Assembly: GCA_963720565.1 (NCBI GenBank)
Contig: CAVRFW010000009.1
Location: 32,001 to 96,000, forward strand
Source of the DNA: Candidatus Bathyarchaeota archaeon
GTDB lineage: Archaea; Thermoproteota; Bathyarchaeia; Bathyarchaeales; Bathycorpusculaceae
Direction of reading: 5' to 3'
Length of the DNA stretch: 64,000 nt
Within the stretch, counting starts at the first letter, position 1; each line of letters begins with the position of its first letter. The notes beneath the pieces are model-generated. The model made no database searches, was not told where the DNA came from, and was given only the letters and a program-made list of their open reading frames with translations. The position numbers were made by a program, and so were the translations under genes. Below, one piece after another: positions 35,903 to 63,857 of the stretch.

Positions 35903-36970
35903 TTGGGCTATATGACTGGGTTTGGACGCGCCAAGATCGTTATCCAACTTGTCATAGGCATCGCAATCCTATTGTGGCTGCTTCAACTTGCGAATTCAAG
36001 CGAAGTGCTAACGACAGTCCTACAGGTCAACCCTCTGAACCTGATAGGCGCAGTTGCATTCTTCGTTACAGCTTCAACCTTCGTGGCTCTCGCACTTTGC
36101 ACCACTCTTAGGAACTCTAATCCAACTGTGCCCCTTAGGAAAATCCTGATGGCCAGTTTTGCTGGGCAATTATTAAGCGATGTGACTCCGGTTAGATCAG
36201 GGTACTTCATGACGCCTGTTTTCCTTAAACAGTTAGCCAGCATACCAGTTGAACAAGGCATGACAGGAGTTCTTGCCACAGGAGGCGTCAACTCTCTTGT
36301 TAAAGTAGCGATGTGCCTTGTGGGTTTAGTGTATTTTTCAAGTTATTTATCCCTTCCAGCTGAAATCACAAACGCGTTAGTCGTCGGAGTTACGGTTCTG
36401 TTTGTTGCAGGTTTATTCTTGCTGCTGCTTATGTTGAATAGACGCCTGTCAAAGCTAGTTGTAAAGCTTGAAAAGACACCGCTGATCGGAAAGAGACTAA
36501 GCAAATTCATTGAAATGTTTAGCAATGTTCAACAGGAAGGACGAAAAATTCGGAAATCTTTGATATTCGTTGCCATTCTGGTATTATTATCTTTAGTTGC
36601 AAATGCCACAGCGTTATACTTGGTCTTTAACAGTGTTTGGTATCCTTCTCTAAAACTGCTTGACTTCTTTTTCCTAGCTTCTTTTGCATCTGTCTTAACC
36701 TACATTCCAATTACTATCGCGGGCTTAGGTGTGCAAGAGGCGGGCTATGTTCTTCTTCTTAATTTGTTGCTTGGGTTCCCTCTCTCTACTATTAACCCGA
36801 GGTTTGTTGCTTTTGCGTTGATAACAAGAGCGTTGTTCACGGGAACAGACATAATAGGCGTTGGCCCACTGCTATCGGCAGGATTCAAACCCAAAGGTAA
36901 AGACCCGTTCAAAGAGGCAAACTACACTCAAATTGCTACTTCAACTTTTTCTGGGTCCCAGCAGTTATAG
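35903..36970 (+). CDS. LPG_synthase_TM / flippase-like membrane protein
   Basis: DVTPVRSG and PITIAGLGVQEAG motifs; multi-TM. Confidence 0.82.
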   Translation: MGYMTGFGRAKIVIQLVIGIAILLWLLQLANSSEVLTTVLQVNPLNLIGAVAFFVTASTFVALALCTTLRNSNPTVPLRKILMASFAGQLLSDVTPVRSGYFMTPVFLKQLASIPVEQGMTGVLATGGVNSLVKVAMCLVGLVYFSSYLSLPAEITNALVVGVTVLFVAGLFLLLLMLNRRLSKLVVKLEKTPLIGKRLSKFIEMFSNVQQEGRKIRKSLIFVAILVLLSLVANATALYLVFNSVWYPSLKLLDFFFLASFASVLTYIPITIAGLGVQEAGYVLLLNLLLGFPLSTINPRFVAFALITRALFTGTDIIGVGPLLSAGFKPKGKDPFKEANYTQIATSTFSGSQQL

Positions 36971-39366
36971 AATCTTATGTCTATAGCTACATTGAAGCTT
37001 TCTTTGAACGTTTCTGTTCTATCAAAAATCAGGAATGTGAAATATCCTGCTCTGTTTATTTGCCATACAAATGATGGATCTTCAACATCTGAGATGTTCT
37101 CTGATGGAACAGACCATTGCATTACAAGTTTGGATTTGTCCATTAGACTTGTGTTTCCTGTTTCTGTAATTATTCCATTCCACAATTCCACGTCGAACAA
37201 ATGCTCAGAACTCCTGAATGTAGCTGTCATTAATCCTTCTCTGTAATCAGCTGGAACGGGGATGTGGAATTGGGCGCTTGGCGACCCAGTTACGTTTGTT
37301 ATCGTTAAATTAATTGTCACATGTTTTATCGGCGGTGCAAAGTCTTTCTCTGCGAAGGATGCATAAATTGTTTCTTCTTCGATGGGTCCAACATGGTAGA
37401 CTGCTGTCCCGTTTTGTCCAACATAAACAGGAGGAAGATATTCTGGATCGCCTAAATATCTCGTGAGAACGCTCCATTCATAGGCTAGGGGCATTCTTAT
37501 TTCTGAGGGAGTTGCCCAGGGGATGCTCAGAAAATATGACACGTTCCTTTCCCTAAGGAAGCTTATCCCTTCTTCAATGGTGTCCAATTTGTAGAGAGGA
37601 GCCGACTCGTTTCCATCAAGTTGCAAGACCTCGCGTTCAAGATAGTATTCTTTTATATCGTATGTGGCGATTCGGGCATCTTTCGGCGTGTTTTCATTAA
37701 TCCACTTCCATGCATCCCCCTCTTCAAACACTTGTATAAGGTAGCTCGACTTGTCGTTACCAAGAGTGGGTGTGGGTTTATACGAGTTTATACTTGGAAG
37801 AACTGGCACAGTCAAAATGAGAATTAGCCCTATCAGGATCATGGGAGTTACACTCTTAACTACATTACGAGTTGCGAGAAGCATTCTAGTGCATTCAGAT
37901 AGAATAATTGCCAGCGCTGGCATGGCAATAACTAGATAACGAATAAATGGGATATGCGTTGCCATGATGACAAGCCCGACGAGCAGCAAATAAGAAGGTA
38001 AAATTAGAAGGAACAGTTTTCGCTTGGTGAACATGAGATAAACGATTGCTGATAGCAGGATTACTGATCCTATCTTAGAAACTACGCTAAATAACCCAAA
38101 TAAAGGAACTTTTGTCCAATTCTGAAAATGTTGCATTGTGGAGTTCAGCAACATCGAGTCCAAGTATTTACCGATGCCGAAAAAGGGGTAAAGAGGATTT
38201 CCCAACAATACCAAGTTTCGCATAAACCATGGAAAAACTATGAGAACTGCCAAAATGGCTAGCCAAGTGAAACGCTTAACAGATATGTTTCTCTTCACTG
38301 CATAGAGAAGCAGAAGTCCGAAAGAGAATACGCCTATAAAACTTGTTAGCGCTGAAAAACAGCAGAACAATGTTCCCACAAGTTCGTATTTTTTTGCTTC
38401 AGCATCATTCGAATGATATGCTTTGAAGAAGAAGAACGCTGACAAAGTTAGCATTAGGGTTAAGCACATGAGGTAAGTTTCCTGAACAAAGACTTCCCAA
38501 AAGGTGGGCATGACGCTTAATATTAGCATGGCAAAAACGGAAGCTGTCCTGTTCTTGGTCATAATCATCGCAAATTTGTACGTAGCAATCATCGTTACCA
38601 AACCGAGCATTGGCTGGAGTATTCTGAAGTAGAAGTCATTGGAACTTCCGGCGAAGGTGTACAAGTAAACCGCAAGTAGTTGAACGCCTGGGGGATAACT
38701 TGCGCTCATTTCCAAACCAATTGATGGACCAGCAATAAGCGGTATGGTGCCCTTTTCGAATATGATTCTTGCATAATTCACTCCGTATGCTAGTGAATCC
38801 CACTCTATAGGGGGATATGCTACTGTCTGGTAAAGTGCAATGCAGATATACACTCCGATAACAATCAAAACTGTTACTTCTAAGATGTTGGATTTTGTTA
38901 TGTGCATCCTTTTCTTTTCTATGCTCAGCTTATAGCAGATACTCGGTTTCAATCCTCTGTAGAACGTGCCCAGCAATAAGGTAAGAAGAAGACTTACTTG
39001 GGTCAAGAGTACCGTCGGAAATGATATTTCCCATACAATTCCAATCAGAATCATCATCACATATGTCGTTCCAAACCCTAAGCCGACAGAAAGCAGCGCC
39101 CTCTCTGTAGCGTCCAATCCGTATCTAACCAGAGTTAATGACAGCAAGAAACCGTTGACTAATATGAAAATGAAACCTGTCCATCCAAAATCAAAGGGGA
39201 TTGTCTCAATAGGAGCTTGAAAAATATTTGGCATTGTGAAATCCGAAGTTGGATAGTTAAGAATACCGAGAATGCCTGATAATACTAAAACTATCATTAT
39301 CCAGATGATAAGCATAGCATCACGGTCACGCGTGTTGCTCGACCTCCATTCCATAGCTTTTTGCAT
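36928..39366 (-). CDS. GT-C fold membrane glycosyltransferase (ArnT/PMT-like) with extracellular C-terminal domain
   Basis: More than 10 TM helices, EWDSLAY loop motif, YPPG, WFMRN...GNPLYP, AWKWINEN. Confidence 0.8.
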   Translation of the reverse strand: MQKAMEWRSSNTRDRDAMLIIWIMIVLVLSGILGILNYPTSDFTMPNIFQAPIETIPFDFGWTGFIFILVNGFLLSLTLVRYGLDATERALLSVGLGFGTTYVMMILIGIVWEISFPTVLLTQVSLLLTLLLGTFYRGLKPSICYKLSIEKKRMHITKSNILEVTVLIVIGVYICIALYQTVAYPPIEWDSLAYGVNYARIIFEKGTIPLIAGPSIGLEMSASYPPGVQLLAVYLYTFAGSSNDFYFRILQPMLGLVTMIATYKFAMIMTKNRTASVFAMLILSVMPTFWEVFVQETYLMCLTLMLTLSAFFFFKAYHSNDAEAKKYELVGTLFCCFSALTSFIGVFSFGLLLLYAVKRNISVKRFTWLAILAVLIVFPWFMRNLVLLGNPLYPFFGIGKYLDSMLLNSTMQHFQNWTKVPLFGLFSVVSKIGSVILLSAIVYLMFTKRKLFLLILPSYLLLVGLVIMATHIPFIRYLVIAMPALAIILSECTRMLLATRNVVKSVTPMILIGLILILTVPVLPSINSYKPTPTLGNDKSSYLIQVFEEGDAWKWINENTPKDARIATYDIKEYYLEREVLQLDGNESAPLYKLDTIEEGISFLRERNVSYFLSIPWATPSEIRMPLAYEWSVLTRYLGDPEYLPPVYVGQNGTAVYHVGPIEEETIYASFAEKDFAPPIKHVTINLTITNVTGSPSAQFHIPVPADYREGLMTATFRSSEHLFDVELWNGIITETGNTSLMDKSKLVMQWSVPSENISDVEDPSFVWQINRAGYFTFLIFDRTETFKESFNVAIDIRFYNCWDPEKVEVAI

Positions 39367-39374
39367 AGTTCACC

Positions 39375-42333
39375 TTATCCGGTTCCTCCAATGGAGATTT
39401 GTAGTTCCACTTTTGTATCTTCGGCGAAATCCTCCCTCAACACTACAACAATTGTGTATAAACCTGTTTTCTCGACATTCCAAACCAGTAAAGGATTAAT
39501 CTCCCCAGCGACTATCGAGTTCGGGGACCTCGCAGCTAGTTCACGATGTTTCCACCATTCTGTAGTTTCTGAAGGTTCAATGACGCCTTCAAAGACCTCG
39601 ACACATATTTCTTTTCTATACGAGTTGGTTTGAACCAACACTCTATCATATTTGTCCAGAATCGGGAGGTATACCATAATTGTTGGAGGGGAAGTTTTCT
39701 CTGTCATTTCGCTTTTCAAAGAATAGAGTGAGACTTTTCCTTCGGCTTGAAGAGGTCACAGCCTCTATCTTGCTTATGGCAAAATCTTCGTTGTATGCGT
39801 GAAGTGCAAATTCCGTGAATTCTTTCTTGCTGACTGGAACCAAAAACTCGCGAACCTTCCATTCTCTCGTATCAGTTTTCTTGATGAATGTGTATTCAAA
39901 CCATTCTTTTGAGTATTCGTTGTATAGGTATATGCTCAGTTTATCTGTTCCTGAATCATAGTAGGTTAGCTTTACGCTAGTCAAGTTCGTTGTAACAACG
40001 CTGAATCTCGGAGAATCGCTTCCGGCGACAACAGACTGTACAGTGTTTCCGTTAACTGAATGAGGCTCACTCCATCCATCTTGACTAATTGCAATGGGCA
40101 TCGTAGAGTTTGCAGTTATATCTGAAACTTCAGCTGACCAAACACTATAGATTCTAGGGTAGCCATCGTAACTGATTTTGGGAAAAAATGGAGTTCCCAG
40201 AAACTGTGCCATTGGAAGTATGTCAAAGTGACCGTGTTCACGAGCCCAATCAACATCTAGAACGTATTTCACGTTCTCGCTGTTGAGATATTCAAGTATG
40301 CCGGATAAGCGGGAGATGTTATAGAGGTGCCGAGCTTCCCATCCGTCAAGGTAGAAGAAATAATCGTTGCTACAGTTTTTGACATAATATATTCTATTTT
40401 CGATTGTGGCAACTTTTTCGCCTTCATTCAAGTTTTCGTTAATCCATTCCCATGCTTCTGCCTCTGGGAACACGTTCTTAAGTGCAAGCCAGGTTTCAGC
40501 GTTTGGATTTTCTAGAAACCACAAATAGTTGTCACGTGGTTCATCTTGGATGTTATCCATTCCCACTTTGCCGCCCATGATATATGTTAGGCTGGGAAAC
40601 ATGAAAGCTACAATTAGTACTACGGTTATGCCCATCCTCAGCAAATCGGTTTTGCGGGGGAAAGGTATCTTGATTTTTGTTCGATTAAGTTTAGTTTTTG
40701 ATTGATTAGTAGTGGGATTGTCCTGTTTTGCGCATTTCTCTAGTGCTTTTAAGATAGGTAAGGCGCTAAGAAGTGCAAAGCCTGGCAGTGTGAAGACTAT
40801 GTGCCGTGGAAACCCCCATGTTATTCCGCTGAGAACGATTATGCTCAGCGTTGATGGCCACGCCAACAACAACCAGAACTTCTTGCTTTGAGTCGGAACA
40901 AATGTTATTCCTAGTATAGTGAGCAAGGAGATGGAAGGAAAATGCGTTTTGTACGTGAAAAAAATAATGGTTTTCAGCAGTAGGGGCATTTCGCCTCCGA
41001 AGAAAGCCGCCGTGGCAGATCGTCTTAAGCCTCTGAGGGTCGTCTCCATTATTAACGGGTCTATGTTTATTCCGCCAAGCACAGTATAACCAGTGGGGTA
41101 GATGGGATTTCCGAGCAAGACTAGATTTCGAAGATACCAGATTCCGCCAATTACTAGAGTCGATGAGATTAGCAGCAGGACAGTTTTTGTGTTTGTCCTG
41201 AACCCGTTCTTTTCTTTGACGAAATAATAGATTAAGGCGATAATGAAGAATGGTGCAAGATACAAGGCCAAGTATGAAGTTAACAGGGCAAACCCGTAGA
41301 ATACTCCGCTGGAAATCCAGTATCGGGATTTTGCTCTGATTATTGCAAGAAATAGAAACAGAACTGAAACAGTCCCAAAGAAGGTGAGGGTAGAGTAGCT
41401 GGTAGCAAAAATTGAATATCGAAAGAATAGAGGCGTCATTATAAGCAACAATGCCGACAATATCCCGTACCTTTTTCCAGCGAGAACTTCTCCGATTTTG
41501 TAGGTTGCAAGAACTGTTAGAATGCCCATAACAGGGGGGATGGCTCTCAGGTAGAAGTCTTCGATTAAGCCTATTTGCGTGTAGTAGTAAGCCCCGAGTG
41601 CAGAAAATAGAGGAGGAAAATTAGCACTCATTTCGATACCGATGGAGGGTCCGGCTATTACTGGAATGCCATGATTGTTGAACATGATTACAGACATTAC
41701 CGCATGGTAGACTGTGGCATCCCAATGTGTGATGACCGTTAACAATGCATGATAAAAGATGAAAAAGAATATTGTTACGATAGCGAGGCAGGCTAACAAC
41801 CACAGTCCAAGGTTGCTTGGTCTTCTAACTTTCCCCATGGTGAAATGGGCCTTGAGGAACTCGCGTGTTGAAGCTCTAAATTTCCCTTTGTGTCTGCGGA
41901 AACCTATCAAGAGAAGACCAGCCCCGACAAGTATGATGACTACGTTTAGCTGCAGTTGAAACAGGTTCCAGCAAATCCCCAAGACGATGGTTATTAAGGC
42001 TGTTAATCCTGTTCCCAACCCGAGCGCACTTATGAAATTGATGACCGGGTCTTTTTCATCAGCCAATAATGTGTTGGATGAGATACCTCCGAGAATTAGA
42101 ATTTCAACTGTTGCCAGAAAGGCTAAAGGGGCACCATCAATTTGAACCGGCATATAATTGATAGTTGGGTTGGCTATCCAAGATGCAACTCGTTGAAATG
42201 CTGCTAACCATGTTTGGTTTGTGTAGACATACACAAGCCAGGCAGAAACCAGAGAAATCAAGATTGACAGCGGCAGTATTAGGGTGGGTGTTGTTTCTTT
42301 CTTGTCTGGTTCTGGCATGGCTTGGTTTTCCAT
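39375..42333 (-). CDS. GT-C fold membrane glycosyltransferase, paralog of the neighbour; frameshift near 39730
   Basis: HWDATVYH, FPPL, WYLRN...GNPIYP, AWEWINEN. ORF 39375-39719 resembles the neighbour's C-terminal domain. Confidence 0.8.
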
Positions 42334-42683
42334 GTTAAGGTCTCACTATTTTTCGATTATTGATTGACTTGAACGTGCGACAGCCGATTTGGAGAGCCAT
42401 ACTGTAGCTTGCAGGCATCAGCATTAGAACCCCATTGCCCAGTTGCCCTCAGTTCCGTAGTTGAATGGAAGTTTATTTAAAACCTCTGTTTGTAGTCACG
42501 TCACCTTTCCAACATTGCGCTTGTAGAATGTCAACACCAATGATTTTAAACTTCCAGGAAGCGCGAATCACAATCTCTATACCCAGCTGTTTTGTCCTCC
42601 AACCATTCAGGGAAATTCCGTAGGTAATCGACAAACTCGGGATTTGAGTTCTCAAAGCAATCAGAAGGCATCGCCCTCGTGAT

Positions 42684-44684
42684 CTAATAGATCACCTTGA
42701 TGACCCAAGCATTGTTTTCATTGAATGCAAGCTCATAATGAGGACTGCTTAGGAATAGATACGCATCATAGTTGTTTCTCCATTCTTGAACTTGAGCACT
42801 GACGCTATCGCTGAGATATATGTATGAGATATTGTATTTCTTCAAGATAGATAATGCCTCTGACGAGTTAGGATGTTTTGCGACGATAATGCTCTCATCT
42901 TGTCTTGCAAACATAATATTTGACCATCCAACTTCGGATATGCTCAATAACGGCATAACAATACGTCTGTGGCTGATTGTAGGTATCCAAGTACTTGGAG
43001 TTCCAATCCAGTGATCGTTGAAGATTACGGCGTTTTCATTTGTATTGTGCAAAATCCAAATTATTGCATTATAGTCGGCGGTAGCCATTCGGTTTGTTTG
43101 AAGACCGCTCACAAAGTCGTTGGTGGTTTCAGGTTTCCAGAATACGATCGTTGCTCCGAGAATAACTGTGGAAAAAAGAAGAGTTGCTACGAGAACAATG
43201 TGCCAATTAGTCTTTATCAGTTTGTATGAAGAGTTTGGAACTCTTTTCTTAAGGAAGTCATAAGCTTTGACAAAACCAATTCCGGTCAACACCGTAAAAG
43301 GCAATGATAGTGTGGGATTGAGGAATGTCCCTGATTGGAGATAGTACCAACCTGGGAAGTGAATCTTGAATATTTCATTCAATATTAGAAGAAATATGCT
43401 GAGAAACCATGCTAGGAGAAAGCTGCCAATTCTCCTTCTGACCCTGATAAGGAGTAAACCTAAAATCCCGAAAAGGAACAACCAGTAGCCATAATACATA
43501 AAGATGTTTGCAGAACCGATTTCACTTCGTAGCGAATACTTTTCAAACCACAACAAAAGCGTCTCATATTCCCTTGTGGGAACTTCAATTGTCAACCTAT
43601 TAAGAATGTTAAGAACCCACGGGGAAGACAGCGTAATTCCACTGGTAATGATTGCTGTTACCCCCAAAAGGCTTTCTTTCCTTTGTTTAAAAAAGATCAA
43701 TCCAAATGAAAAGAACAGAATAACAAAAAGTGTAGCGGTTATGAATGAAAGGGTGTAGGTTAAGAACAGACTTGCCAGTGTGATGCCTGCCAGTATTAAC
43801 AGTTTGCATTTCCCGGTAATTGAATAGAGATATGAAAAGAGTAGCAGACTCAAAGTTAATGATAACCCGACCAGTGCTGGAAATCGACCCGTAACTATCA
43901 TTTGATAGAAACTAACTGAGAGCAGAGCGGAGAAAATTGCTGAACAAAGTGCAACTCTGTAGTCATTTAATACTCTGCGTGTTAGGACAAATATTTCGCC
44001 ATGAATTATAGCAAAAAATGCCGAAAAAAAAGAAACAAGAGCTGGCATGGATACTGCTGGGTCCAGGAGGTAGAGAAAAGCTATTACTGACGGGTATCCT
44101 GGCGGATACGTGAATTGGGATTGCTCAGGAAAGTATGGTGCCCAAGATTGCGGTATTTCACCCTGCTGAACAATCATGGTCGCAGCCAATGTAGATGTAG
44201 CTGGATCATCACCCATGGGGATTAAAATTCCATTTTTTGGAAATGGAACAGATATTAGAACAATTGAAGCAATAATAGAAAGTATCAGGATAGAATATTT
44301 AGAAGAAAAGGTAAATGACCTGCAACTTGCTTTTCGCAGTTTCCCTTGTTTCCAAGAATATGCTAGCAAAGGAACCGATAATAAGAGTGTAGCTGTGATG
44401 ATCGCATATTCATTTATTGGCACATTTAGTAGTGTTAAATAGAGTGCCATCAATGACGTAAACGCTATTCCAATTACGGGGGAAAGAATTACTCTTTCTA
44501 AGAGGTCGAATTCGTCTGAGACTATCGCCTGTAGAATTGAAAAACCCGGAAGAAACAAAATGAATAAGACCCTGACCGTGACCGAGAGGGCAGCCGTACC
44601 TCCGACTAAGAACACAACAAGAACTAGAAAAAAACTAAGAACTATAGGTGCAAAATTTGGTCTTTGCTCATATCGGAGGCGCAT
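42684..44684 (-). CDS. GT-C-like polytopic membrane protein (DUF1616-type N-terminus)
   Basis: LFLPGF..LERVILS, GDDP loop, YPPGY, DYNAIIWI..NT, ILKKYNISYIY. Confidence 0.75.
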   Translation of the reverse strand: MRLRYEQRPNFAPIVLSFFLVLVVFLVGGTAALSVTVRVLFILFLPGFSILQAIVSDEFDLLERVILSPVIGIAFTSLMALYLTLLNVPINEYAIITATLLLSVPLLAYSWKQGKLRKASCRSFTFSSKYSILILSIIASIVLISVPFPKNGILIPMGDDPATSTLAATMIVQQGEIPQSWAPYFPEQSQFTYPPGYPSVIAFLYLLDPAVSMPALVSFFSAFFAIIHGEIFVLTRRVLNDYRVALCSAIFSALLSVSFYQMIVTGRFPALVGLSLTLSLLLFSYLYSITGKCKLLILAGITLASLFLTYTLSFITATLFVILFFSFGLIFFKQRKESLLGVTAIITSGITLSSPWVLNILNRLTIEVPTREYETLLLWFEKYSLRSEIGSANIFMYYGYWLFLFGILGLLLIRVRRRIGSFLLAWFLSIFLLILNEIFKIHFPGWYYLQSGTFLNPTLSLPFTVLTGIGFVKAYDFLKKRVPNSSYKLIKTNWHIVLVATLLFSTVILGATIVFWKPETTNDFVSGLQTNRMATADYNAIIWILHNTNENAVIFNDHWIGTPSTWIPTISHRRIVMPLLSISEVGWSNIMFARQDESIIVAKHPNSSEALSILKKYNISYIYLSDSVSAQVQEWRNNYDAYLFLSSPHYELAFNENNAWVIKVIY

Positions 44685-44890
44685 TGAAAGTACCTTTTCA
44701 GCTTCCTACTGAAACATTTACCTTCTGTAGGGGCTACTAATAGTTAAATCCTTACTAATTCAAGTTTTTCCAGTAGCGTATATTTGCCGCCTAGACTTAA
44801 CACGGGTTTTAGTCAAACAGCAAGTTTTATTGCTGAAGCTTAAAGTTAAGTGTGATAGGCATTAAGCATGTGGTAAGAGGTTCGGTGACG

Positions 44891-46039
44891 TTGAGGAAAC
44901 ACTGGTTTCACATATCCTTGATTCTATGTATTGCTCTGCCGATAATGACGTTAGTTTTTCTAGATTACTATGACTTGGAGGGTTATAACTACCGTTATAA
45001 CGGTGAAACAGGGAGCTTTGAAAGCTGGCCTAACATGTATTTTAATGAAAGCTTTCTTTTCGAGTTGACTTGGAAAGGCCGCATGTTCCTGCTGGTGTTT
45101 CTTTGGATTCTTTTGGTTGAGTCAGCAATTGATTGGAAAAAACTTATGGATGAAAAACCAGAGAGTCGCAGCGTTATGCTTGCTTCCATAGTCTGCGCGT
45201 TTATTCCGACGGTGTATGTGTTGGCGACCAGTTTTTTTGGGTTTGATTTGACAGTTTTGAGAATAGGGCAGGAGGTTTTTGGTATTCGAAGTGTCACCAG
45301 TGCGAATGAACCTTGGGACTTTCTGCATTTGCAATGGCCTATATCATGCGAGTACATAGTTTTTGCAGTGTTTTTTATTGGCGCGGTAATGTTGGCTTAT
45401 AGAACTAAGGGATTGAAAAGCCTCTCCATTTCTTTAGCTCTTCTCGGAGGAATAGGCGTTGCATACATGTTTGACACTATTTACCCCTTTGGCATTTTTC
45501 GACCTCTTCAAGCGTTTGCTCTTCCCACGTCTGCGGTAGCCGCTGCCCTCTTTGACCTTTTGGGATACACGGTGCGGTTAGTTTTTCCAGTATACAGTGT
45601 TGAGTCTTATCTTCCAGCTTTAACGGTTACTGCGGGTGAAAGAACCGCTTCTGTTACAATTGCCTGGGCTTGTGCGGGGGTTCAAAGTTTGCTGCTTTAT
45701 CTTGTGATAATTCTTGTTTTCTTCAAGAAAGCGGATATTTCAGCTTTCCGGAAACTGGCGTATTTTATTATAGGCCTCTTCGGCACTTTCTTTGTGAACG
45801 TTCTCAGGGTGTTCTCGATTCTTATTGTTATGCTCGATTATGGCAAAGAGGCTGGAGAGATTTTCCATAATACATATGGCGAAATATACTCTGTCATCTG
45901 GATTTTGCTGTTTATCCTGCTGATTGGTTTTATTGAAAGATTCATGTTGGTCGAGAGGACAAAGCATGCTTTTCACATGGTCAGCGATTATCTTGGAGCT
46001 GCAAAAAACAAGATTTTTGCGCTGCGGCGTCAACTTTGA
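44891..46039 (+). CDS. Exosortase/archaeosortase family protein
   Basis: Multi-TM with Cys-Arg-His triad: IAWACAGVQS, VNVLRV, IFHNTYGE. Start TTG after GGTGA. Confidence 0.88.
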   Translation: MRKHWFHISLILCIALPIMTLVFLDYYDLEGYNYRYNGETGSFESWPNMYFNESFLFELTWKGRMFLLVFLWILLVESAIDWKKLMDEKPESRSVMLASIVCAFIPTVYVLATSFFGFDLTVLRIGQEVFGIRSVTSANEPWDFLHLQWPISCEYIVFAVFFIGAVMLAYRTKGLKSLSISLALLGGIGVAYMFDTIYPFGIFRPLQAFALPTSAVAAALFDLLGYTVRLVFPVYSVESYLPALTVTAGERTASVTIAWACAGVQSLLLYLVIILVFFKKADISAFRKLAYFIIGLFGTFFVNVLRVFSILIVMLDYGKEAGEIFHNTYGEIYSVIWILLFILLIGFIERFMLVERTKHAFHMVSDYLGAAKNKIFALRRQL

Positions 46040-56590: not shown

Positions 56591-56857
56591 TTGGCGTTCT
56601 ACGTATACATACTTCTGTGCATTGATGGAAGCTTCTACACCGGTTACACAAAGAATATTCAAGTAAGAACACGACTCCACGTCAACGGCAAAGGCGCTAG
56701 GTACACGAAAGCTCACAAGCCACAAAAAGTCGTCTATGTTGAGCTCTTTGATTCTACTGCAAAAGCTATGAAGCGTGAGAAAGAGATAAAGAAGATGTCA
56801 CATAAGCAAAAGCTCCAACTTGTCAACTTCCAAAAAGATGATGAACAACCTAAGTAG
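56591..56857 (+). CDS. GIY-YIG nuclease (UPF0213/YazA-like)
   Basis: YVYILLC.DGSFYTGYT..R..H..GKGARYTK..AMKRE. Confidence 0.9.
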   Translation: MAFYVYILLCIDGSFYTGYTKNIQVRTRLHVNGKGARYTKAHKPQKVVYVELFDSTAKAMKREKEIKKMSHKQKLQLVNFQKDDEQPK

Positions 56858-56913
56858 TGCTTTGTTGGAGAAAGTTTGATAAAAACGTTGAAGAATTATT
56901 ATTTGGTGATCTT

Positions 56914-57387
56914 ATGCCAACAAAGAAGCGGTCTTGGAACGAGAAGCTAAATGAAAGCACGGGGCTTCCCCGAGTAGAGAAAATCACAGACAAAATGAGC
57001 AAAAAGTGGGGAGAAGGTACGGTTGCAATTCCAGCCCCCATAGAGGTGGATGAGATAATGCGGGGAATTCCATCAGGAAAATTAACAACCATAAATGACA
57101 TACGTTTTGCCCTCGCAAAAAAACACAAAGCCACCATCGGTTGCCCTATGACTACAGGTATATTCGCATGGATCGCTGCCTATGCAGCAGACGAGAGAAA
57201 ACGATGCGGTGAGAAGAACATAACGCCTTACTGGCGAACGTTAAAATCAGGAGGCTTATTGAACGAAAAATATCCAGGCGGAATCGAAGCGCACAGACAA
57301 CTCCTGGAGAAGGAAGGGCACACTATAGTTGCCAAAGGAAAGAAATTCATGGTTCTCAATTACGAAGAATCCTTAATCCACATGTGA
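56914..57387 (+). CDS. MGMT/ATL-like alkylated-DNA binding protein lacking the catalytic Cys
   Basis: IPSGKLTT, CPMTTGIF, TPYWRTLK, LLEKEGH. Confidence 0.8.
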   Translation: MPTKKRSWNEKLNESTGLPRVEKITDKMSKKWGEGTVAIPAPIEVDEIMRGIPSGKLTTINDIRFALAKKHKATIGCPMTTGIFAWIAAYAADERKRCGEKNITPYWRTLKSGGLLNEKYPGGIEAHRQLLEKEGHTIVAKGKKFMVLNYEESLIHM

Positions 57388-58794: not shown

Positions 58795-60126
58795 TTAGAG
58801 GGTTTCAGTTGTTTGTTTTAGGGGGCATCCTGCTCCGCATGTGTTTAGGGTTGGGCATTCGTGGCATTTTTCTGGCGCGTATTTTCTTTGGCGAATTTTT
58901 TGGCAGGTTGGGTGTTGCCAGATGGTTTGCCAGTCATCCGTTAGTATGTTTCCCAGCGGGGCTATATTGTAGCTTTGACAGGGGATAACTGTGCCGTCGG
59001 GTTCGGTTGCCATGTTAATTCTGCAGGCGCTACAGGTTTTTAGTCCCAATTCGAGTTCCAGAGGATTAAGTTCGCAGTATTGGGTTGGCGTGTACCAGGT
59101 GAACTCCATGCCCAAATGTCGCGCTTTGGTGGTTATGCGTGTTAGGATGGGTTCTAATGTGGACTTCGTTTAGTGCGAAGGTTTTAGCTACTTCGGGTGC
59201 CTTTCCTGAATAGATTAGGCTGTTGCAGGCGAATTGTTTGAGTCCTAGACCATGAAGGAAATCTATTGTTTGTTCAATGTCTTCCACGTTGTATTGGTTT
59301 AGAGTGGTGTTGCTGATTGTGTAGATTGGCGTTTCGATTGCGTTTTTAAGCCTTGTATGGTTTCTTGCCAAGCTGCCCGGAGCGTCGGTTATTTTGTCGT
59401 GGATCTGAGGATTGTGGGATTCGACGGTTATTTGAATGTGGTCTAAGCCTGCGTCTATCAGGGATTGGAGGTAGGTTTTGTCTTTGAGCTTTCGTCCGTT
59501 GGTGACTAATCCGCTGACAAGTTCCCTTTTCTGGGCATGTTCAATTAGCACAGGTAGGTCCTCTCGTAAGGTGGGTTCTCCGCCTGTGAAAACCATGTGC
59601 GGGATGCCTATGTCGTGGAGTTTGTCAATGTAGCTATCCATTGTTGGGTATTAAGTTCGGCAGTTTGCTTGGGACCTCCGGCATAGCAGTGGATGCATCT
59701 GTTGTTGCATTTGTAGGTTAAGGCGAGGTCCATTCGGTAGGGTGCGCTTAGCTCTTTTTGGAAGGGTTCGATTTTTTGTACGTTTAGGTATGAGACGGGG
59801 CAAACGTCAGGGGTTTTTGCGAAGGTGTTTATGGTGTATAGGGTGTCTTGGTAGTCTTTGTTGGCAGTCTTCTGCGTCGACTTTGTAGTGTTTGAGGATG
59901 TTTCGGACAGTTTGTTGCTGGGTTTCGCCTCTGGTGAAGCCGTGGACGATTTCTGTTGCAGTCTTGTTTAGGAAGAGGACTCTCGACGCGTTAATTACTA
60001 GAACACTTGAACCGTCTCTTTCAAGTCGCAAGTGAAGGCGAAGTCCAGCGTATGTCACCTTCTTGGACCTTTAGATGATGAAGCACTTCTCTGAGGTTTG
60101 GGATGGAGTTTTTCTAGGATTTTCAT
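58795..60126 (-). CDS. Radical SAM/SPASM enzyme with N-terminal RRE/PqqD-like domain; several indels
   Basis: CNNRCIHC at 59686-59709, FTGGEPTL, VTNG, SPASM CSAC..PC..CHECPTLNTCGAGC, N-terminal VLFLNKTATEIV. ATG 60126 follows GGAGGTG. Confidence 0.88.
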
Positions 60127-61794
60127 TCAGTGAGCACCTCCGCCAGCACATGCACAAGCGCAACTCACGCAGGCGCATGCGCAGGCGCATGAGTGGCAGG
60201 CGCAGACGCACGATTGTTTGTTTATTGATTGGTTGCTTGGGGGAGATTGGAAGGGAATGAGTTGGTTTGCGAAGTCTTGGATGTTTTTGACCATGTTGTT
60301 AGCAGCTGATTGTATGTTCTAGGACTACGGTGTTTGCGAAATCCTGTCCTGGTAAAGTCGTTGGTTTGGTGGGAATCGGGGGTGTTGTTGTTGAGGGCGT
60401 GGTAGTTGAGGGAATCGCTGGCCCTGAGGGGCTGCGTGGAATGTTCCAGTACCACCACCAATCGGGTTTGGGAGTGATGACCGTTCCAGGTGGAAAGATT
60501 GTCTTTAAATTGGTCGTCGAATTTTTGGTCAGATAGGAGCCAATCTATGTTTTGATTTAAAGCGTCGCCTTTTAGCTCAGGGGTTTGCGCGTTGGTGACT
60601 TGTTTCCAAGCTGCATCGACTATGGATTTGTAGTATTTTGTTGTGTCTTCTCTTGAGTAACCGCGTAACCTTTGGTTTACAGTGGTCACCAATCCTTGGT
60701 ATGTGAGGGCTAAGTGCTTTTTCATTTAGAGTTCCGTCGGGTTTTACAGCTGATAGGTAGTCAATTTCGTAGTATCGAGGTTGGGTAGGTGTTTCTGCAG
60801 TAAGTTTTTGTGTTTTCTCCAGTTTCAGCAGGGGTTCAGTTTGTGTTACCGTGACTAGGCGTTTTAGGATTAGGCCGTAAAGGATCATGGTTAGGACGCG
60901 TATGGGTTTTTGGCCCAGAACTAAGCCGGCTTCCACCGCAGTTAGGGTGCGGTTGGCTCCTAGGGCTTCAACGGATATTTGGGGTTTGGTGTAGGTTGCT
61001 TTGGATAATGCGATGAATACTGCTACAATTACAGCTGCGACTACCACAAAGGCGCCTATCCCAAACAATAGTTCGATTAAGTCGAGTATACCTCCGCCAT
61101 TTTGAGGCGGAGTTGGGCTAGGTGCGGGTGAGACATAGGTTTCTGGAAATGAGACACCTGCGGCAAAGGTTTGTTCAGCTTGCCAAGTGGGTCTTTCCCA
61201 GTAAACAGCCGTTCTATTATCCTCAGTTAAGAATACGTTGTCAAAGGGCAAGTTTGAGGGATATAATACTTCGGTTGTTTGGACTCCAAAGGGCAGAATT
61301 ATTTGCAGACGCAGGTCTTCAGTTCCTATTGAGCTTGCGAATGTGCTTGGGAAGAACTGCATACCCACATTTCCAGGGTTTGTTTCATCCGAGAAAACCA
61401 TGTTTGGTACCGTTGCGTATGCAAGGAAACTGATTGGTTGGTTGAGAATTATGGGTTTTTTTAGTGTAATGTCGATGCCAATTGGGTATAGAAGAGCGTT
61501 CTCGTATTCCAGAGAGTCTCCAGCCGCAGTCTTCTACAGCTTGGATTTGGTAGCCTGCTTTGGGCATGCCTAGTGTGAAAATGCCTTGGGGTGATCCTGA
61601 AAGGTATTGAAAAGTGATGTTATAGAAGATGTTTAGGCTGACCAGTCGTGGTTGATTTCGACTCTTACCCACTCTTGGGTTACGCTGTAGGTGACGCCTT
61701 GAGCCGAAGCGAAAAAGGAAAACGAGAAACTTGCTAAGAGACACAAAAGAGCCACTAACAGGATGGTGTACGTGTGTCTCTTAGGCTTTACCAT
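60127..61794 (-). CDS. Membrane-anchored protein (DUF2207-like ectodomain) with C-terminal Cys-Ala repeat tail; several indels
   Basis: Signal peptide MVKPKRHTYTILLV, ectodomain, one TM (FGIGAFVVVAAVIVAVFIAL), cytoplasmic part, ends SCVCACHSCACACACVSCACACAGGGAH. Confidence 0.75.
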
Positions 61795-62136
61795 GTGGGC
61801 TCCTCGGTTAACTCGAATTTGTTTCCGCAGTAGTCACAGGTCACGAATGGTTTTCCATCAACTATGACAGTCTTTGTTGGGTCAACGATAGCACTACAGT
61901 TTGGGACAGTGAATTTTATTTATTTTAAGCGGACCAGTGACAGTCAGGGTCTGTTTGATTTCTATGGGTTTCTTTTCGCGGGTCAAAAAAATCATTCCAC
62001 CAGCAACTGCCAAGAAGGCTAAACCTATTAGGAAATATGTGAATCCGAGGTTTGCTGAAATCATAAAGACTAACCCTAAGAAAACCAGAACTACTGCAAC
62101 TATGTAAACAAGAATTTTGCCTGCGCCTTTTACCAT
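61788..62136 (-). CDS. Small two-TM protein with C-terminal zinc ribbon; frameshift near 61900
   Basis: Removing one base gives CPNCSAIVDPTKTVIVDGKPFVTCDYCGNKFELTEEPTW; its stop overlaps the next ATG. Confidence 0.75.
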
Positions 62137-62407: not shown

Positions 62408-63857
62408 TCAAGAATGTGGAGTCCTGCTAAACTCCTCCTTCTCCAAGTGAATCGCTGCCACCGTAGCGTTTACGTTTTTGTCTTCAACTACGATTATTAT
62501 TTGGGAAGTATGAGGTGCAAAGATTCCTCGCTTTATGTTTATTCCTCGGATGGCGCTGATGGCTGTTGAAGCTACTCCTGGTGAGTCTTTCATTTTGTCG
62601 CCAATGAGCGTGACAACTCCTAAGCCATATTCTATTTTTAGTTTTTCGTCAAACCCCTTCAGTTTTTCCTCATTCTTCTTTAGAAAGTCAGAGTCCAAAA
62701 ACAAAAAATCTCGTAGTCTCTCTCCTGTTTCGAGCGTCTCAGCGCCCAAGTCCATGAAGTCGTTGCGTTTCTCCCAGATTCTCAACGAGTCTTCAAGGGA
62801 ATGACTTTTCTCGTCATTCATAGATAATATAGCGCATCCAGCCTTTCCGGTTAAACACTTTACAACCTCTCTGCCGCTTGTCTCTGACTGAATAGTTGAG
62901 TACTTCTCAGGTTCATCTATCGGAACAATCTGCAACTTCTGCATGAATCGCCTTGCCATTGCGATTGCTGGACTCTGAACAATTTTCATGCCCATCATCG
63001 AGGCTTTGTGTGCTTCGTTGTAGGTTAGAGCAGCTACATGGTCAGTTTTCTGCCCTTTTACAACCTTCGGATCAGCACTTTGCACTGGCACATCCTTAAA
63101 CAGAAGTGTGTCAGTCTGATATCTACTCTCCAAAAGACCTGCAACGAAAACCGCAGAAAGATCTGAGCCTCCTCTACCCAAAACTGTCTCTAGTCCGTCA
63201 GGGGTTACGCCTAAGAAACCAGCGAAGGAAATGATTTTGCCGCCTTCCAAAGGCTCGACCAAAGTATCCAATCTCTTTTTGCTTAGCTCGTAGTTCGGTG
63301 TTGCGTCCTCAAAATTATCATCCGTGACAATTGGCCACTTTTCCACAGGTATGCAATAAGAGTTTAGGTTGTTGCTCTTCATAATGTAGTCTGCTAGTGT
63401 CGCCATCGAAAGCTCACCCCCTAGGGTAAGAACTTTTGCTTTGACACTTCCACTGAAGCGCTTGTTGACCGATTCAAGTGCTTCCTCCGTCTGCCTCCTG
63501 CAGTCTGCCACACAAGACAACGCTTGCCTTATGTACTCACTTCTAACATGCTGCTTGGCAATATGCTCATAAATCTTAAAAACCGCATCAACTCCGATGG
63601 GCGTTGACTGGGCGTAAGATTCCCCAATTCTGATCAGTGCATCGGTGCAACCAGTTGGCGCAGAGAACACCACAACTGGACCAAAATCGTCCTTTGTTGC
63701 AAGTTCCTTTATGCGCTTTGAGAATTTTCGTAATTCCTCTGCCTTCGGCATCTATTAGACTGCCGCCAAATTTTGCCACTGAAGTCCTATTCTTTAAAGT
63801 CTTATCCTCCTGACCCAATTTAGCAGTCTTACACCTAGCTTTATTAGTTTTCTTCAC
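62408..63857 (-). CDS. Aspartate kinase with ACT domain; frameshift near 63720, start uncertain
   Basis: VAKFGGS in one frame; VVVFSA, GGELS, LGRGGSDLSA, KDV..ADP and ACT domain in the other. Confidence 0.88.

Follow-up and report, generated by a model that had tools for sequence, protein, structure and literature searches.

A peculiar cysteine-rich sequence is encoded in the archaeal DNA analysed here, a stretch of 64,000 nucleotides from Candidatus Bathyarchaeota archaeon that we refer to as the window. Read on the minus strand, positions 60210-60127 translate to CVCACHSCACACACVSCACACAGGGAH followed by a stop codon, with three CxCxC(xC) blocks separated by HS and VS. An earlier sequence-only reading had described these blocks correctly, leaving the strand unnamed. 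The locus raises the question of whether this tail is a selected protein segment, whether it exists as a free peptide or as part of a larger protein, and what the radical SAM gene beside it does. The analysis places the tail at the C-terminus of a membrane protein, in the following arrangement of features (window coordinates).

61788..62136, minus: protein of ~115 aa with two transmembrane helices and a C4 zinc ribbon; its gene and the start of the membrane-protein gene share 7 nt
60127..61794, minus: whole gene of a type I membrane protein (~550 aa, including a signal peptide), carrying several single-base indels here (from relative P0001)
61140..61700 (approximate), minus: extracellular beta-sandwich, like the N-terminal domain of ribophorin I/DUF2207 (fold match and sub-cutoff PF09972)
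61006..61071 (approximate), minus: single transmembrane helix (sequence; helix 236-261 in the model)
60958..60993, minus: juxtamembrane YxxP motif YTKPQISVEALG, putative RRE recognition sequence (conservation and predicted docking)
60480..60950 (approximate), minus: cytoplasmic helical domain with weak GOLPH3/Vps74-like fold and weak TIGR04222/DUF2207_C likeness (structure comparison)
60350..60460 (approximate), minus: flexible Pro/Thr/Ser-rich linker, preceded by a WWWYW patch (sequence; low pLDDT)
60253..60349 (approximate), minus: two amphipathic helices with QDFAN copies at 60346-60332 and 60279-60265 (model and hydrophobic moment)
60319..60319: extra base, a putative assembly error that cuts the tail from its gene
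60127..60210, minus: Cys-Ala tail with 10 Cys and C-terminal GGGAH-stop, putative radical SAM substrate core
58795..60126, minus: RRE (PqqD-like)-radical SAM-SPASM enzyme, broken by indels here, with its ATG immediately after the stop codon of the tail; landmarks are the RRE strand RVLFLN (59983-59966), CxxxCxxC (59709-59686) and SPASM (~59076-58825)

Results

The tail motif is beyond chance, since the pattern CxCxC..CxCxC matches the source genome (2.09 Mb, six frames) at the tail only and since, among the fetched loci, 104 distinct DNA sequences specify one identical 13-residue tail core, every synonymous codon being used. Selection at the protein level, previously argued from mixed codons, is thus supported by the synonymous variety of the relatives; the argument does not hold for the window itself, where eight of the ten Cys codons are TGC. 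In alignments of both close and distant members, Cys and Ala of the tail are invariant. The number of Cys is 5-10 across members, in CxC spacing, and Asp and Glu are absent from the window tail. Plasmids and viral contigs gave no match, and no RNA sample was listed as containing the sequence.

As assembled, the tail belongs to a 55-aa ORF (60294-60127) that starts from the ATG at 60294 and lacks an SD-like run upstream, as had been noted. A free precursor peptide made from this ORF would be in line with the 14 short tail-bearing proteins on record, and with the 3 of 135 related loci whose tail frame is closed before the motif. Against it stands the extra base at 60319, close to the indel earlier suspected near 60320, which none of the four runs aligned to the region has in its contigs (these represent relatives, mostly 90-96% alike, other than the source sample) and which is also missing from the three intact relatives L001, L035 and L002. 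The tail frame is continuous with the upstream protein in 128 of the 135 loci (3 off contig, 1 unseen), and Met is found at the column of the ATG in just 7 of 72 relatives. The short proteins come from contigs below 4 kb (13) or are marked partial (1), and 13 of them begin inside known C-terminal sequence of the membrane protein. Given the absence of the extra base in the four runs and the continuous frame at 128 loci, the apparent 55-aa ORF is an assembly artefact, and a free peptide is scarcely credible. Alignment of the homologs thus decides for fusion, which the sequence-only reading had favoured, with the tail frame conserved. The occurrence of the tail in 120 of 120 proteins from a search restricted to 481-2000 aa is not counted as evidence of fusion.

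The gene cassette contains ~13 single-base indels in 3.3 kb, compared with 3 switches of frame over 59 other gene matches to orthologues elsewhere. Pseudogene decay of the cassette was considered and rejected: purifying selection is normal (dN/dS versus L035 of 0.075 and 0.11; relatives, 0.06-0.12), nonsense codons are absent, and 0 of 172 near-invariant positions are changed. Considering this selection and the intact near-invariant sites, the indels more likely stem from local assembly error than from decay. Between 58800 and 61950 of the window, the ~13 indels coincide with a strong strand skew (GC ~+0.27, AT down to -0.35) that is limited to the cassette.

In intact relatives, the membrane protein comprises, in order, the signal peptide, beta-sandwich, transmembrane helix, a short disordered stretch, helical domain, Pro/Thr linker, two helices and the tail. 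Relative P0001 (548 aa) shows 92% identity over 84% of a 274-aa query fragment. From the membrane topology, the tail is expected to be cytoplasmic. The ectodomain has the ribophorin I lumenal fold, as judged from comparison of its model with yeast Ost1 (Z 15.5, rmsd 3.0, 178 aligned), and this fold is also common to the N-domains of M1 aminopeptidases (Z 13.4). The C-terminal helical bundle of ribophorin I was not detected, PF04597 giving no match to the (CA)n members. Relationship to DUF2207 stays below threshold, with PF09972 reaching 23.9 bits at best (cutoff 24.4) and PF20990 giving no match; the same is true for TIGR04222, at 17-19 bits for two members and 33.5 for a (CHSA)n sibling family (threshold 43). 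Except for a zinc-ribbon insert in one protein, no Pfam or NCBIfam model matched the (CA)n membrane proteins above cutoff, and the CXXX-target models of NCBIfam did not match them. The cytoplasmic domain model aligns to 3kn1 with Z 6.4 (rmsd 4.3, 154 aligned) and to 2zih with Z 5.4 (next, 3.5), both values below the reliable range of the structure-comparison tool. Foldseek returned no match to this model at E<=0.001, nor did hhalign match the cytoplasmic alignment to one DUF2207 protein; the weak link to DUF2207_C is drawn from position, together with an Atlas lead of 0.89. The two QDFAN-bearing helices span residues 221-237 and 243-253 in the model, with hydrophobic moments of 0.39 and 0.56.

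Several relatives vary this architecture. P0183, from a cluster named from Theionarchaea, has a C4 zinc ribbon inserted in the cytoplasmic domain (residues ~315-342) that resembles the ribbon of the small upstream protein, which hints that the membrane protein and the zinc-ribbon protein might act together. The members at L140:1363-3480 and L141:1225-3117 have an extra domain of ~85 residues C-terminal to the Cys-Ala tail, and 12 residues are inserted in them after the YxxP strand, ahead of the helical domain. As a module, the ectodomain is mobile: tail-less proteins have it fused to beta-helix-like repeats, and members of ~770 aa contain it twice (P0238, P0259, P0139). Two Bathyarchaeia proteins (L116:2045-3727, L117:3148-4881) exhibit the ribophorin I layout, and L117 passes PF04597 (50 bits; cutoff 25); they are possible archaeal counterparts of the eukaryotic OST subunit.

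The enzyme, intact in L002 with 442 aa, has a radical SAM domain (PF04055, 98 bits; cutoff 29.5) and a SPASM domain (PF13186, 43.7 bits; TIGR04085, 46 bits; both above cutoff). The CxxxCxxC motif is found in 100 of 100 enzymes, being the pattern used to select them. The N-terminal RRE matches PqqD at 18.5-21.6 bits, slightly below the cutoff of 23.4, and its substrate binding is a prediction; its best NCBIfam match is the lasso PqqD (E 1.5e-4). Best solved relatives of the enzyme are SkfB, PqqE and SuiB (E 2e-28 to 1e-20), and its top NCBIfam scores involve NirJ2, PqqE and MftC-like models, the best at 149 bits against cutoffs of 265-850. Among the best 25 matches for each of three enzymes, none was above cutoff for PqqE, MftC, NirJ/Ahb, SkfB, AlbA, PapB, TIGR04463 or the CXXX-repeat system. 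In the SPASM region, seven Cys are invariant and two more are frequent (C362, 66 of 72; last Cys, 60 of 72), with C340 (72 of 72) and C362 representing extra conserved Cys. The window's subclade has Cys at 357 in place of 362 and lacks the last SPASM Cys.

Coupling of the genes is tight. The enzyme lies immediately downstream of the membrane protein in 30/30 and 17/17 genome loci and in 3/3 named loci, as well as in 71 of 80 metagenome loci that had been found by tail patterns. The other nine comprise five loci with no room, two without a closed tail, one with the enzyme upstream and one with none downstream and no upstream sequence. The zinc-ribbon gene is present in 98 of 111 scored loci, the remaining 13 being without upstream sequence. 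Across 251 genomes of the class Bathyarchaeia, both genes occur in 48 and neither in 200, the three discordant genomes all having the locus at contig ends; related genomes are not independent in these counts, and presence is patchy within genera. The membrane protein is found in 50 genomes, two weak matches having been removed as other proteins, and the enzyme, at E<=1e-75, in 49; the cassette is carried by ~1/5 of the Bathyarchaeia genomes searched (50/251). Among Thermoproteota outside the class, the enzyme is adjacent in five of five genomes. The earlier suggestion of a link to RRE/radical SAM chemistry is supported by the adjacent enzyme gene, its domain matches and the co-occurrence.

A profile search with the membrane protein gave 1005 clusters with E<=0.001 as cutoff and 302 with 1e-30; of 149 newly listed clusters, 124 have the tail and the other 25 are mostly truncated or ectodomain only. 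L004, considered as a family member, was dismissed as a spurious match. Members on record come from Methanocella, where the cultured Methanocella sp. CWC-04 is a carrier, and from Theionarchaea, Thermoplasmata, Zymogenus and Thermoanaerobaculia. Two Actinomycetota samples (151 and 121 genomes) contained no (CA)n member, just DUF2207-type proteins and five (CHSA)n siblings. The latter (L149, L163-L166; 5 of 121 genomes) are homologous membrane proteins with a (CHSA)n end and a WxPP motif, the gene immediately downstream encoding a related radical SAM enzyme. At tail-less DUF2207-type loci, a CxxxCxxC ORF was absent in 13 of 13 short loci.

Elsewhere in the window, the gene at 62408-63857, which we take to be aspartokinase-like, is split by one indel near 63716. 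Two ORFs at 56591-57387, presumably GIY-YIG-like and MGMT-like, are separate here and fused in L001. Large multi-pass membrane proteins, which we assume to be glycosyltransferase-like, cluster at 36928-46039 together with a gene at 44852-46039 that is presumably exosortase/archaeosortase-like.

Two elements come into question for recognition by the RRE. QDFAN occurs twice after the Pro/Thr linker, as had been noticed, its copies lying in different frames as assembled. It adjoins the tail, in the usual position of a leader, and its F-A-N positions are fairly conserved among archaeal members; on these grounds it could be the leader that the RRE recognizes, as was proposed previously. The doubled QDFAN is found in 65 of 120 close relatives and in 0 of 121 distant ones, of which one has a single copy. 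It is absent in the (CHSA)n sibling family, where the related enzyme is present and WxPP aligns to the YxxP motif. A similar helix, alike in position only, precedes the Gly-rich end of tail-less DUF2207 proteins. Moreover, QDFAN is helical, whereas the ligands of RREs are, with a single known exception, beta-strands (PMC12710340), YxxP and W/Y/LxxP being characterised recognition sequences bound in that form.

By comparison, YTKPQISVEALG has Y, P, E, L and G invariant in 38 of 38 sequences of an unselected alignment; among distant members, Y is kept in 45 of 45. The strict pattern YxxPxxxxExxG is present in 120/120 close and 89/121 distant members (missing in 32), as opposed to 48 of 4820 shuffles (1%); the relaxed pattern Y/W-x-x-P/A or Y/W-x-P covers 95 of 100 anchored distant members. 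Only 1 of 14 tail-less DUF2207-type controls has the YxxP motif. Disordered in the model of the lone membrane protein, the motif forms a strand in the predicted complex of the L002 enzyme with the whole cytoplasmic part, both candidate elements being present. The complex scored 0.86, against 0.15 for the best of three controls. The mark for this score is attained by 116 of the 157 solved pairs and by 2 of the 215 mismatched ones; the L002 complex is outside that calibration, having its own alignments and ligands, with the rows of alignment A4 picked by YxxP and the tail pattern; its pass may reflect likeness to solved RRE-leader complexes. Runs share at least 66% of contacts, with partner pLDDT at least 71. 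Residues 39-46 of the RRE are paired to the YxxP strand in the complex, 40-46 being among the surest contacts, and six tail residues (278-283, CACVSC) touch invariant residues of the enzyme core and a SPASM Cys. QDFAN residues are unnamed among the contacts, which is no evidence against their contact; the RRE cleft is occupied by YxxP in the prediction. YxxP just below the membrane therefore appears to be the grip point of the RRE in the model. The earlier assignment of this role to QDFAN is probably wrong and a QDFAN leader is a very remote prospect, while a secondary contact of the QDFAN helices with the enzyme is possible.

Discussion

The tail is understood as part of a three-gene cassette (a TM-zinc-ribbon protein, a type I membrane protein and an RRE-radical SAM-SPASM enzyme) in which the enzyme's probable substrate is the full-length membrane protein, modified at its cytoplasmic Cys-Ala tail. 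Fusion and invariance of the tail, coupling of the genes and the domains of the enzyme enter this explanation as observations. To proceed, the reaction would have the RRE bind the YxxP strand just inside the membrane, ~260 residues N-terminal to the tail, with the flexible linker predicted to let the tail reach the active site, where the enzyme would covalently change the tail of the intact membrane protein. As a counterpoint, adjacency and a predicted complex fall short of biochemical proof of modification.

Provided that the tail is the substrate, staples linking Cys sulfur to Ala carbon as thioethers are our guess at the chemistry, one that could slightly more readily prove wrong than right. 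The choice follows from Cys and Ala both being fixed, from SkfB as the best solved relative, and from the precedents of CrpC and QhpD. Counting against thioethers, the top family scores are those of NirJ2/PqqE/MftC-like enzymes, far below cutoff. The extra SPASM Cys may also fill the open iron site whose retention has been proposed for thioether synthases of the CrpC type (PMC13692751).

There are two further ways to read the tail. It could be an unmodified, metallothionein-like segment for binding metal or Fe-S, a role that the sequence-only reading had also considered, with the enzyme loading, building or sensing the cluster. Consistent with that are the 5-10 Cys in CxC spacing, the zinc ribbons in the neighbour protein and within the domain, and the possibly full ligation of the auxiliary clusters. 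Yet the spacers of metal-binding CxC motifs are usually variable, and here Ala is as invariant as Cys; these alanines and the dedicated enzyme would go unexplained. Metallothioneins are free small Cys-rich proteins and the tail is fused in 128 of 135 loci. RRE and YxxP moreover belong to peptide-maturase machinery, as the accessible part of PMC12710340 indicates, and we regard metal binding by an unmodified tail as improbable. Alternatively, the membrane protein could be a giant precursor whose tail, once modified, is cut off as a small free RiPP, in keeping with leader-plus-core logic and with a low-complexity Gly/Ser or basic linker ahead of the tail as potential cleavage zone. The loci read have no conserved protease or exporter beside the cassette, folded ecto- and cytoplasmic domains would make a costly leader, and some members (L140, L141) continue with a domain beyond the tail, so that tail release is a quite remote alternative to modification in place.

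There exist mechanistic analogies to known systems, and the cassette is best described as working like CrpC/CrpA or QhpD/QhpC while belonging to neither; it also falls outside DUF2207 and TIGR04222. In Methanococcus voltae, CrpC/CrpA (TIGR04463) likewise pairs an archaeal RRE-radical SAM-SPASM enzyme with an adjacent Cys-rich protein, and CrpC demonstrably introduces thioether (ranthionine) links into a protein; however, CrpA, of 29 kDa, has its leader at the N-terminus and C-x-x-Q/D repeats, as compared to a 550-aa substrate with internal motif and (Cys-Ala)n tail (PMC13692751). TIGR04463 is not among the best 25 matches listed for the present enzyme, and at ~2% Cys the membrane protein falls under the 5% screen given in the accessible text of PMC13692751. 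QhpD/QhpC share RRE-dependent thioether formation on a protein subunit, but QhpC is a small subunit with N-terminal leader and Cys-Asp/Glu links (as far as the same source is available), and the present tail is without Asp/Glu. SkfB, PqqE and SuiB have the radical SAM core and SPASM/twitch in common and act on short free peptides. Sactipeptide and ranthipeptide systems employ a short precursor with N-terminal leader, unlike the present 550-aa protein bearing the tail in 128 of 135 loci. Their SPASM has seven Cys and an open AuxI site; the present enzyme has seven invariant Cys plus C362 (66/72) and the last Cys (60/72), which may or may not serve as ligands. With the RRE of lasso-peptide/PqqD type (YxxP or W/Y/LxxP; PMC12710340, in the text available), motif and predicted beta-strand pairing are shared; the motif is here internal to a membrane protein and separated from the core by ~260 residues and a folded domain. 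The TIGR04222 proteins, to which the helical domain has weak sequence similarity, are likewise membrane proteins whose Gly/Ser/Cys tail is the proposed substrate of a peptide-modifying enzyme encoded nearby. According to the accessible part of PMC12452194, that enzyme is an MNIO and not a radical SAM enzyme, coupling is loose, the tail is predicted to be periplasmic and the substrate role is a proposal. DUF2207 proteins (PF09972/PF20990) share ectodomain, transmembrane helix, helical domain, pre-tail helix and Gly-rich end, but are multi-pass and lack Cys tail, YxxP..E strand and enzyme.

Regarding the role of the whole protein, its layout could be receptor-like, which is a guess; a DUF2207 mutant of Streptococcus mutans exhibits stress defects, according to the portion of PMC10457818 available. 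The matured tail might stay on such a receptor-like protein as a metal-, sulfur- or redox-responsive module or as a docking handle, though this guess is rather unlikely to hold. A broader scheme, tentative and on the unlikely side, would unite a superfamily of receptor-like membrane proteins in which the docking strand for the RRE is internal, the Cys-repeat tails, (CA)n or (CHSA)n, can be swapped, and each tail has a radical SAM enzyme of its own. On (CA)n, the enzyme, its auxiliary clusters fully ligated, would perform a modification new to RiPPs (e.g., a radical lanthionine ladder or a new sulfur/metal cofactor) that is kept on the protein and used in transmembrane signalling.

Lastly, the tail system is real, conserved and undescribed in the literature searched. 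No description of the system or its chemistry was found there, subscription papers being mostly outside reach, and a term search of supplements of PMC13692751, as far as available, gave nothing relevant to it. With the docking motif located, a minimal test substrate can be made of motif, linker and tail. Precursor-mining tools that seek short ORFs miss recognition in the middle of a chain. Few cases of RiPP-type radical SAM chemistry acting on whole proteins have been demonstrated (QhpC, CrpA), and the mechanism proposed for the cassette, if true, would add an integral membrane protein whose recognition sequence lies mid-chain.
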